Assembly (NCBI GenBank): GCA_963693365.1
Contig: CAVNZM010000002.1
Span: 11,960,328 to 12,024,327, forward strand
From: Amoebidium appalachense
Lineage: Eukaryota > Protista > Ichthyosporea
Direction of reading: 5' to 3'
DNA length: 64,000 nucleotides
A program made the position numbers and the translations under genes. Of this stretch, positions 40,801-43,800 are shown in pieces. Numbering within the stretch: the stretch's first letter is position 1; every line of letters begins with the position of its first letter. The notes under the pieces are model-generated. The model saw only the letters and a program-made list of their open reading frames with translations, did no database searches and was not told the DNA's origin.

Positions 40801-43800
40801 GGCTTTTTTCAAGCCCAAAGCAATGGGTGATACCATATTTCCGGCTGACATCCGGGGGCATAGCTTTCCGTTCGAAGACGATAAAGTTCCGCCCTAGTAA
40901 GCGTGTTACTACCCTGCGGCGTGGGTCAAATCTCATATTTTCCCCTCTGATTACGAATTCTGTGGCCTTCGGGACTTAATTCTTTTCAGCTGGTGTAGTA
41001 TGTTAGCCAGGGAAGTATCGACTTAGGTATCGACGGGGGAGCTTCCTAGAAGCCCCGTCTCCTGAGTTCCTATCTATATTTTTCTTGCTTCTGCTTACTG
41101 CTGCAACTTTAACCCCCGGCCTTTCCCACTGCCCTTGCCTGCATAAGCAACCCTGCTCGTCTCTGATCAAGACGGGTGACCTACTCATGTTCAAGTGAAA
41201 CAGTATCTGAGTTGGGTTTCGTTAACGAGGGGAATAGGTCGAAACTCGGGTACTGTGGATGACGTGGGCCCCCCCTGAGGATGGGCTCTGCTTATTATGC
41301 ATACTCTTTATGTATGGCTTGCATTCTGCATCGTGTTATCCGTTTGTTCTTGTGTACTTCGTACTTTTTGACGCATTCAAAACCCCCCCCCCCCCTCCCC
41401 CCGGCTCTGCTTATTGTGCCCACAATTTTTGTGCTTTGCATTATGCCTTGTTTTGTCCTTGATGAATGCGTGTTTCGTACTCTGTAACGCATCTGAGATC
41501 CCCCCCCCCCCCCCCCCCCGTCCCCCCCCCCCCCCTAAGCGTGTTACTACCCTGCGGCGTGGGTCAAATCTCATATTTTCCCCTCTGATTACGAATTCTG
41601 TGGCCTTCGGGACTTAATTCTTTTCAGCTGGTGTAGTATGTTAGCCAGGGAAGTATCGACTTAGGTATCGACGGGGGAGCTTCCTAGAAGCCCCGTCTCC
41701 TGAGTTCCTATCTATATTTTTCTTGCTTCTGCTTACTGCTGCAACTTTAACCCCCGGCCTTTCCCACTGCCCTTGCCTGCATAAGCAACCCTGCTCGTCT
41801 CTGATCAAGACGGGTGACCTACTCATGTTCAAGTGAAACAGTATCTGAGTTGGGTTTCGTTAACGAGGGGAATAGGTCGAAACTCGGGTACTGTGGATGA
41901 CGTGGGCCCCCCCTGAGGATGGGCTCTGCTTATTATGCATACTCTTTATGTATGGCTTGCATTCTGCATCGTGTTATCCGTTTGTTCTTGTGTACTTCGT
42001 ACTTTTTGACGCATTCAAACCCCCCCCCCCCCCCCCCCCCCCGGCATCCGTCCACCCGCCTATTCAACGACCCCCCTTGGTACTAGCACAATATACCAAA
42101 GGGACTGAGATTTGGAATGAGAAGTGGGGAAAATGAAAAAAATAAAATAAAAGAACACAGCAGCAGTAACGGAACGAGGGGGATGTAGGCAGCACAATTG
42201 GTGAGGGAATTGCGGGGAAATCTTGCACATGCACCCCGGATAACAGGGGAGAGGGGCCGGGGGGGGGGGGGGGGGGGGGGGGGGAAGAGGTTGGAGGGGG
42301 AGGGGCAAACGGGGGGAGGGGGGGGGGGGGGGGGTAGGTCGAGTTCACCTTGTGTGCCACGTCTGACTCATTCCTGACTGCCCAAATGATATGAACTCTA
42401 ATCTGAAGGTCTTATTCGGCATCACTGCCTTTTGGTGGATACCGAACACATGATTTGACGCCCACTTTCTAGGCTGAGCCCGTCAAACGGACATGGCAGA
42501 GCGATCGGACTGTATTGTTTACAGAAGGATAAGGGGGCTCGTCCTAGCTTCCTACGGTGTTGATCATAGGGGGGAGGGGTCCGGTTTAGTGCCCAATTGC
42601 CAGCCGTCGATATATTTGCTTTGCGAGCTCTCGTGTCGGGATGTTGCTTAGCTCCCCCCCCCCTCCCCCCCCCCCCCTCCCCCAAACACACACACACACA
42701 CACACACACACACACACACACACACACACACACACACACACACACACACACACACACACACACACACACACACACACACACACACACACACACACACACA
42801 CACACACACACACACACACACACACACACACACACACACACACAAACATTCAGGCACGCACACACATGCGCGCACACACACATGCATGCACGCACGCACA
42901 CTCAGGCACACACACACATGCGCGCACACACGCACGCACACACGCATGCGCTCACACGCACACCACACACACACACACACACACACACACACACACACAC
43001 ACACACACACACACACACACACACACACACACACACACACACACACACACACACACACACACACACACACACACACACACACACACACAAACATTCAGGC
43101 ACGCACACACATGCGCGCACACACACATGCACGCACGCACGCACACTCAGGCACACACACACATGCGCGCACACACGCACACACACACGCATGCGCTCAC
43201 ACACACACACACACACACACACACACACACACACACACACACACGCGCACACACACACACACACACACACACACACACACACACACACACACACACACAC
43301 ACACAAACACACACAAACACAAACACACACAGGATATTCGGAATGGGCTACGTGCACACCTTCTCCAGTGCTTTCAGACGGAGCCGAATGCCAGTCTGAG
43401 GAAGAAAATCTGCAGCTGTGTCTCATCAGTTGCTAAGGGTGTGTGTATATGCATGTACCTGTCTATCTGTGTGTGTCTGTGTTTGTGTGTGTGTGTGTGT
43501 GCGCGCGTTCGGCTATCTGTGTGTGTGCACGTACGGTCGTGTGTGTGTGTGTGTGTTGTGTAATGTGTACGTTTTGTGTGTGTGTTTTTTTTTTTTTCTT
43601 TGTGTGTGTGTGTTTGTGTATGTGTGTGTGTGTGTGTGTGTGTGTGTGTGTGTGCGCACGCGTGTGTGTGTGTGTGTGTGGGTGTGTAGGTGTGGGTGGG
43701 TGTGTGTGTGTGGGGGCGTCAGTGTGTGGGTGCGTGTGTGTGCCTGTGTGTGCACACGTGCGTTTGCAAAAAGTAATTACGGTTTGTTCCCCCCCCCCCC

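Follow-up and report, generated by a model that had tools for sequence, protein, structure and literature searches.

A putative hammerhead ribozyme with a displaced stem II strand in a poly-C-associated repeat of Amoebidium appalachense

A domain of about 155 nt, carried by a short repeat of the ichthyosporean Amoebidium appalachense, is predicted from its sequence to be a hammerhead ribozyme fold whose strands follow the S-G-C order (cleavage site, GAAA, CUGAnGA) and whose stem II 5' strand has been displaced upstream. We consider it likely that this complete S-G-C core, with its displaced stem II strand, cuts the RNA of a probable non-autonomous Penelope-like repeat after the GUU triplet at 41213 (positions are those of the window, the whole stretch of 64,000 nt that was analysed). 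The S-G-C order was already known; the novelty lies in the opened link between A9 and G10.1 and in finding the fold within a retroelement of a eukaryote. The original prediction had called the domain an undescribed functional RNA, either a self-cleaving ribozyme variant or a region recognized by reverse transcriptase. Its reading as a conserved functional RNA stands, but the class is a known one and the S-G-C permutation is described in the consulted part of PMC10085705. Between the two proposed roles, our analysis supports the self-cleaving variant, to which recognition by reverse transcriptase may be an added function.

The domain is present in full six times in the window, each time on the + strand; five copies are intact and one, copy C, is decayed. 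Subfamily A comprises three identical domain copies: A1, whose element occupies 40859-41382 (the extent shared with A3; the 5' limit may lie further out) and adjoins a C run at its 3' end, A2 (41781-41933, element from 41536) and A3 (62934-63086, element from 62650). Subfamily B comprises B1 (39349-39507), which lies inside a partial tandem at 39038-39607 with a unit of 437 nt, and B2 (62091-62249, element from 61967). Copy C (53047-53199) has kept one of four pairs in stem I, four of six in stem II and four of eight in the outer helix that joins stems I and II. Truncated pieces of the element were found near 10128, 28493, 39038, 39614, 41403 and 45790. Over 41133-41305 the similarity between subfamilies A and B is 81%, and their bodies upstream gave no blastn match; because the similarity is restricted to this interval, the domain is a conserved island. 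Element 5' ends vary through 5' truncation while 3' ends are fixed; every 3' end adjoins a C run (11/11) and every 5' end has one no more than 6 nt away (9/9). The predicted cut in A1 is 169 nt from the element 3' end.

Several of the partial copies differ from those described above. The piece at 10128-10320 is B-type and has lost the cleavage site, the GAAA and the larger part of CUGAnGA through an internal deletion. An old partial copy at 28493-28555 keeps CUGAGGA and part of stem III with another 3' tail, and possibly represents a further subfamily. Inserted at 41403-41500, in the C run that separates A1 from A2, is a 3' tail that resembles those of A and C at 71-74% and belongs to a fourth subfamily. 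The A body upstream of the domain (40972-41057), inspected by eye, contains more short inverted repeats at about 41009-41060, which are possibly hairpin-forming. All pieces of the element are on the + strand; the window has 141 C runs of at least 8 nt and 41 such G runs, an excess that may account for the strand bias.

In hammerhead numbering and A1 coordinates (+ strand), the domain opens with the 5' strands of a closing helix (41143-41153), in which 41143-49 pairs with 41289-95 and 41151-53 with 41283-85 (7/7 and 3/3 pairs in all six copies, with U-G wobbles in C). A 7-bp hairpin (41156-41176), invariant in the six copies, leads into the displaced 5' strand of stem II (41178-41183, G10.1 at 41178), whose partner is 41235-41240. 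There follow the 5' strand of the I-II interaction helix (41184-41191, partner 41261-41268; in B 39391-98 with 39473-80) and the 5' strand of stem III (41200-41212), which ends in U16.1 at 41212 and pairs with 41244-41256. By analogy with the hammerhead core, the cut is predicted within the GUU-containing segment 41211-41214, between 41213 (H17) and 41214 (position 1.1). Stem I is short, with 41214-41216 pairing with 41272-41274 (GGG/CCC, 3 bp, in A; GGAG/CUCC, 4 bp, in B), and a linker containing a 10-nt palindrome (41219-41228) connects it to the segment 41235-41244, which holds the stem II 3' strand (C11.1 at 41240) and the core letters G12, A13, A14 and A15.1 (41241-44). The 3' strands of stem III and of the I-II helix fill 41244-41268. 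The last segment, 41272-41295, contains the second strand of stem I (41272-74), CUGAGGA (41275-81, C3 to A9), a single U and the 3' strands of the closing helix. A9 is thus followed by one U and the closing helix and not by stem II, whose 5' strand lies about 100 nt upstream, right after the hairpin; closing helix and hairpin stand where the A9-G10.1 link would be.

We found the core letters C3 U4 G5 A6 N7 G8 A9, G12 A13 A14 A15, U16 and H17 in all six full copies. The invariant blocks GTCGAAAC and CTGAGGATGGGC, also present in 6/6, had been likened to hammerhead halves in a non-canonical order, and they do supply a full core in S-G-C order (in A1, site at 41213, GAAA from 41241, CUGAnGA from 41275). 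The core-adjacent pairs 1.1-2.1, 10.1-11.1 and 15.1-16.1 are G-C, G-C and A-U in five of the six copies, together with the three stems; copy C fails at pair 1.1-2.1. These letters and the three adjacent pairs are the hammerhead core criteria of PMC3088659. The 8-bp I-II helix corresponds to the tertiary contact between stems I and II of hammerheads, and the two stems are expected to touch in three dimensions.

A pair table recovered every helix of the original prediction at its proposed place and gave most of them a hammerhead identity. The closing helix, including its U-G pairing in copy C, and the hairpin (7/7) were as described. The outer stem, which is the I-II helix, has 8/8 pairs in both A and B, with one double change (U-G to A-U) and one single change between them. 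The inner stem, which is stem III, has 13/13 pairs in A (counted outward from 41212-41244), 9/9 in B2 and 8/9 in B1. Both subfamilies have a perfect 10-nt palindrome in the linker, different in sequence, which may serve as a dimer contact. The crossing pairing proposed as a pseudoknot turned out to be stem II; it is complete in A and B2 (6/6) but not in B1 (5/6, with a C.A mismatch) or C. Pair 5 of this stem (41182/41236) changes from U-A in A to C-G in B2 and C. Stem I had been overlooked, and the helices had been left unassigned to hammerhead stems; its third pair changes from G-C in A to A-U in B.

A descriptor for the split form, written post hoc after the sequence had been seen, matched the five intact copies and nothing else on both strands of the 64 kb. 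Dinucleotide shuffling produced a split match in 1 of 5000 sequences for A and 3 of 5000 for B2. When the core was fixed and the rest shuffled, the lenient descriptor was satisfied by 378 (A) and 422 (B2) of 20000 sequences, but stems I, II and III were jointly as long as those observed in 0 (A) and 2 (B2) of 200000. In an alignment of four distinct rows, 93.9% of cells pair, a value reached by 4 of 500 shuffles; double changes affect four pairs in this same-window alignment, a count that 30 of 500 shuffles reach. The alignment was made with MAFFT, which misregistered the third pair of stem I, so that only two stem I pairs were counted. In nested folding, the energy of A does not stand out from that of shuffled sequences (z = -1.20) and that of B2 does so modestly (z = -2.23); by itself, nested folding is weak evidence for the domain. 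The ensemble for A, restricted to nested pairs, gave pair probabilities of 0.02-0.10 for the I-II helix, 0.26-0.40 for the hairpin and 0.14-0.22 for a competing 6-bp hairpin around CUGAGGA.

Public sequencing data were compared with the same region. Among the 24 runs listed, 20 contain the stretch, none of these being listed as RNA. In four runs, with up to 5731 contigs of one run over 186 nt, no core position was among the 19 variant rows listed, in a test biased toward A because B-type contigs align only partly; the data are assembled contigs, which carry neither RNA ends nor strand. In run X20 the two sides of stem II pair 5 vary at nearly equal depth (41182 T>C, 1436; 41236 A>G, 1434), while the depths differ in X1 and X9; the near-equal values do not prove linkage on the same molecule. 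In one contig of run X1 the segment from GAAA to CUGA is diverged (41181-41278), which hints at more subfamilies, and contigs of X1 and X9 contain short repeated units like the stem III 3' strand (41242-41252).

Searches for relatives among known RNA families and sequence collections were largely negative. Rfam, to which the original prediction had pointed as a check, has no family at gathering score here; the six weak matches in 39000-42100 include no ribozyme and none lies over the domain core. The lack of an Rfam match for the domain does not imply that the literature has no counterpart, the S-G-C order being published. A two-motif pattern had 23 metagenome matches and one viral match and was dropped, as none showed blastn similarity to the element; prokaryote genomes had no match. 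A viral match to the hairpin was judged a chance one, lying inside a long ORF, which we take to be phage replicase-like, with flanks that lack similarity. We discarded an alternative placement of C3-U4-G5 at 41153-55 with stem I from 41149-53, as subfamily B lacks the pairing that it requires. The twister, pistol, hatchet, HDV and VS ribozymes were set aside once the full hammerhead core fitted.

We then placed the domain among the published hammerhead classes. The classical types I, II and III, represented in Rfam as nested three-way junctions, gave no match at gathering score. Closest in organization is type-SGC (HRIMA-1 and variants; Eckert 2023, PMC10085705), which the consulted part of that paper describes as a non-circular hammerhead permutation that cleaves in vitro and in which a further helix connects stems I and II on their far sides. 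The window domain shares with it the order of site, GAAA and CUGAnGA, the full core, a stem I strand joined directly to a stem II strand, and the I-II helix. However, type-SGC as presented there has its stem II strand after A9, whereas here this strand is upstream and two extra helices take the place of the link. Type-SGC came from metatranscriptomes and is about 80 nt long by the same passages, in contrast to a eukaryotic nuclear repeat with a domain of about 155 nt. Because the CUGAnGA block (block C) is split, the window domain, as predicted, is outside strict type-SGC. The same part of the paper assumed that separating this block from its stem II strand is impossible, and knew of only two CSG-type sequences.

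Retrozymes and the hammerheads of Penelope pseudo-LTRs also resemble our system, according to the consulted portions of bioRxiv 10.64898/2026.07.22.740005 and PMC4209133: they are short non-coding repeats in full or partial tandem, with one hammerhead per unit, and are thought to be moved by Penelope-like elements. For non-LTR retrozymes, the former proposes circles formed from tandem units. Their hammerheads are, in those accounts, type I, often minimal and dimer-dependent, whereas the window domain is non-circularly permuted with a long stem III; not being type I, it falls outside the non-LTR retrozymes, which have a type I hammerhead in each tandem unit. A viroid hammerhead with an extra core nucleotide, which would lie between A9 and G10.1, was reportedly described by De la Pena and Flores in 2001; there, a single bulged nucleotide is said to be tolerated, whereas the window domain has an opened backbone and two inserted helices. 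In the mainly open-access literature searched, neither a split-block hammerhead nor a permuted Naiad hammerhead was reported, this repeat was not described, and the term 'type-SGC' occurred in one paper only. In the Amoebidium genome paper (PMC11244446), the consulted portion of the main text contains neither 'Penelope' nor 'ribozyme'.

The nearest structural match was found in Naiad Penelope-like elements. Naiads and most Chlamys elements are described in the consulted part of PMC8557442 (Craig et al. 2021) as lacking canonical hammerheads, some Naiads having a 'core' or 'half core'; Naiads are reported there from animals only and mostly at (TA)n targets, (C)n being a common Chlamys target. 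We searched the supplement of this work (Files S5 and S6) with short core motifs and parsed the returned passages by eye. Within these passages, at least 10 of 54 Naiad consensus records, from about seven independent families, end in the strand order of the window domain: closing helix, hairpin, II, I-II, III with UH, I, linker, II with GAAA, III, I-II, I with CUGAnGA, closing helix. By names assigned from file order, these records are Bfor, three near-identical Acropora, two Morbakka, two near-identical Octopus, Esco and one without a visible header. Their helix sequences are unrelated to those of the window, and in the parsed ends the bases past A9 are unable to form a proper stem II. CTGAnGAT has 16 matches in the Naiad file, seven in such 3' ends and nine elsewhere. 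The File S5 record preceding Naiad_Lpol (Smim by file order) has, by eye, an intact C-S-G layout with one extra U past A9 and the same I-II helix. Among the Chlamys 3' ends parsed, the fold was found in none of six.

These observations suggest that the element is likely a non-autonomous, Naiad-type Penelope-like repeat. It shows a partial tandem (pseudo-LTR), 5' truncation and insertion at a microsatellite, and has in common with the Naiads parsed the strand order, the split link, the sense position near the 3' end, microsatellite targets and partial tandems. It differs from them in its host, a unicellular holozoan, in a (C)n target as in Chlamys, in the lack of an ORF and in the linker palindrome. 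The window copies contain no ORF with an N-terminal GIY-YIG and a reverse transcriptase. Two short frames of the A body, considered as remnants of a Penelope ORF, had no Pfam match, and the one searched for homologues had none; no autonomous Penelope-like partner was found among the ORFs of the window copies and these two frames.

All six domain copies are intronic and in sense orientation in an importin-5 gene (37853-63480, + strand, 23 tblastn exon matches). An exon of this gene is 100% identical over 87 residues to a EukProt protein labelled Amoebidium parasiticum; the next matches reach 42-52%, and the named ones are animal, a pattern that by itself would make Amoebidium the most likely host. 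The importin-5 introns are rich in (CA)n, (CT)n and poly-C, and the intron at 38933-43329 alone holds three ribozyme copies. A non-LTR retrotransposon lies on the - strand at 30834-35230, with an upstream ORF followed by an endonuclease-reverse transcriptase ORF split in two frames near 32110-32183. Given its RVT_1 matches and APE-RT look-alikes, this element looks like an APE-type non-LTR, and nothing ties it to the poly-C repeat.

The intronic setting bears on whether the domain is catalytic at all. It could be a hammerhead-shaped fold that is silent, or active only when bound by protein, and selected for RNA recognition by the reverse transcriptase. There is precedent in the Anolis Penelope (Poseidon) hammerhead (PMC11167929), which cut only in the presence of protein and was dispensable for insertion in vitro; mutating its core left insertion unaffected, and RNA-seq gave no reads with ends at the cut. 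The passages of PMC8557442 consulted call the role of hammerheads in Penelope-like elements unclear, and five intact sense copies are tolerated in the importin-5 introns. However, the catalytic letters are kept in A, B and C and, among the Naiad ends parsed, in about seven unrelated families while the helices all change, which binding alone would not obviously bring about. On balance, we regard a silent or protein-dependent fold as unlikely.

We also considered that the domain might be an ordinary intact type-SGC with a 2-nt insertion past A9 and a weak stem II at 41284-87/41237-40, the upstream strand then acting as a blocking switch. This register offers four contiguous pairs in A and five in B2, and a 1-2 nt insertion after A9 is within the tolerance given in the consulted part of PMC10085705. 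But two of the four pairs are G-U, a filter of four Watson-Crick pairs failed in all copies, and the intact-form descriptor (stem II strand 0-2 nt after A9) had no match in the window versus five for the split form. The duplex formed with the downstream strand is 4-5 kcal/mol weaker than the upstream version (-3.8 and -6.7 versus -8.8 and -10.9 kcal/mol), and the paired change at 41182/41236 would go unexplained. The parsed Naiad ends, in which the bases past A9 form no proper stem II, weaken this reading further, and we find it very improbable. Equally little credence can be given to activity solely as a strand-swapped dimer through the palindromic linker, with only tandem or paired transcripts cut: different perfect 10-nt palindromes do occupy the same linker of A and B, the element occurs in partial tandems and minimal Penelope hammerheads are thought in the consulted part of PMC4209133 to dimerize through palindromic loops, but the long stem III (9-13 bp) lets a monomer form all stems and the Naiad ends parsed have short linkers without such a palindrome.

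We therefore retain the S-G-C hammerhead with a displaced stem II strand as the preferred reading. In this mechanism, the strands would rebuild an ordinary hammerhead active site from which A9 exits into the closing helix instead of stem II, and a cut after 41213 would convert tandem or read-through transcripts into unit-length RNA. The cut is bridged by four helices (closing, II, I-II and III; 34-37 bp), which would keep its products paired; nested models predict that they are held by about -16 to -18 kcal/mol. Such pairing would favour re-ligation or circles and could spare the host introns. Once released from a tandem transcript, a unit would have the two ribozyme halves at its opposite ends; by bringing them together it could restore the ribozyme and circularize, in line with the proposal for retrozymes. 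The reverse transcriptase, and the nicking of C runs, would come from an unseen autonomous Penelope-like element. Against this reading count the shortness of stem I (3-4 bp), the low nested pair probabilities of the I-II helix and the hairpin in A, the competing hairpin around CUGAGGA, and the poly-C target, which is typical of Chlamys, although the fold was in none of the six Chlamys ends parsed. Five intact sense copies in introns of the expressed importin-5 gene fit fast constitutive cutting poorly, as do the weak nested support for the I-II helix in A and the behaviour of the Anolis hammerhead. Since all copies are in sense in importin-5 introns, cutting is probably slow, conditional or held together.

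With somewhat less assurance, we are inclined to a broader interpretation: that this is an active hammerhead opened at A9-G10.1, outside the six arrangements thought possible, that it represents a hidden Naiad-type ribozyme older than animals, and that its clamped halves act as a cut-and-hold or circularizing switch tolerated by introns.

If the domain cuts, the stated rule that the CUGAnGA block is inseparable from its stem II strand would be broken, and a whole set of ribozymes would have escaped the genome searches that rely on it. The reading, if true, would explain the reported lack of hammerheads in Naiad elements and mean that the nuclear genomes of eukaryotes contain a non-circularly permuted ribozyme. 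The role of Penelope hammerheads also becomes testable, with a 157-nt transcript and expected fragments of 73 and 84 nt. The finding further suggests that a unicellular relative of animals has Naiad-like elements.
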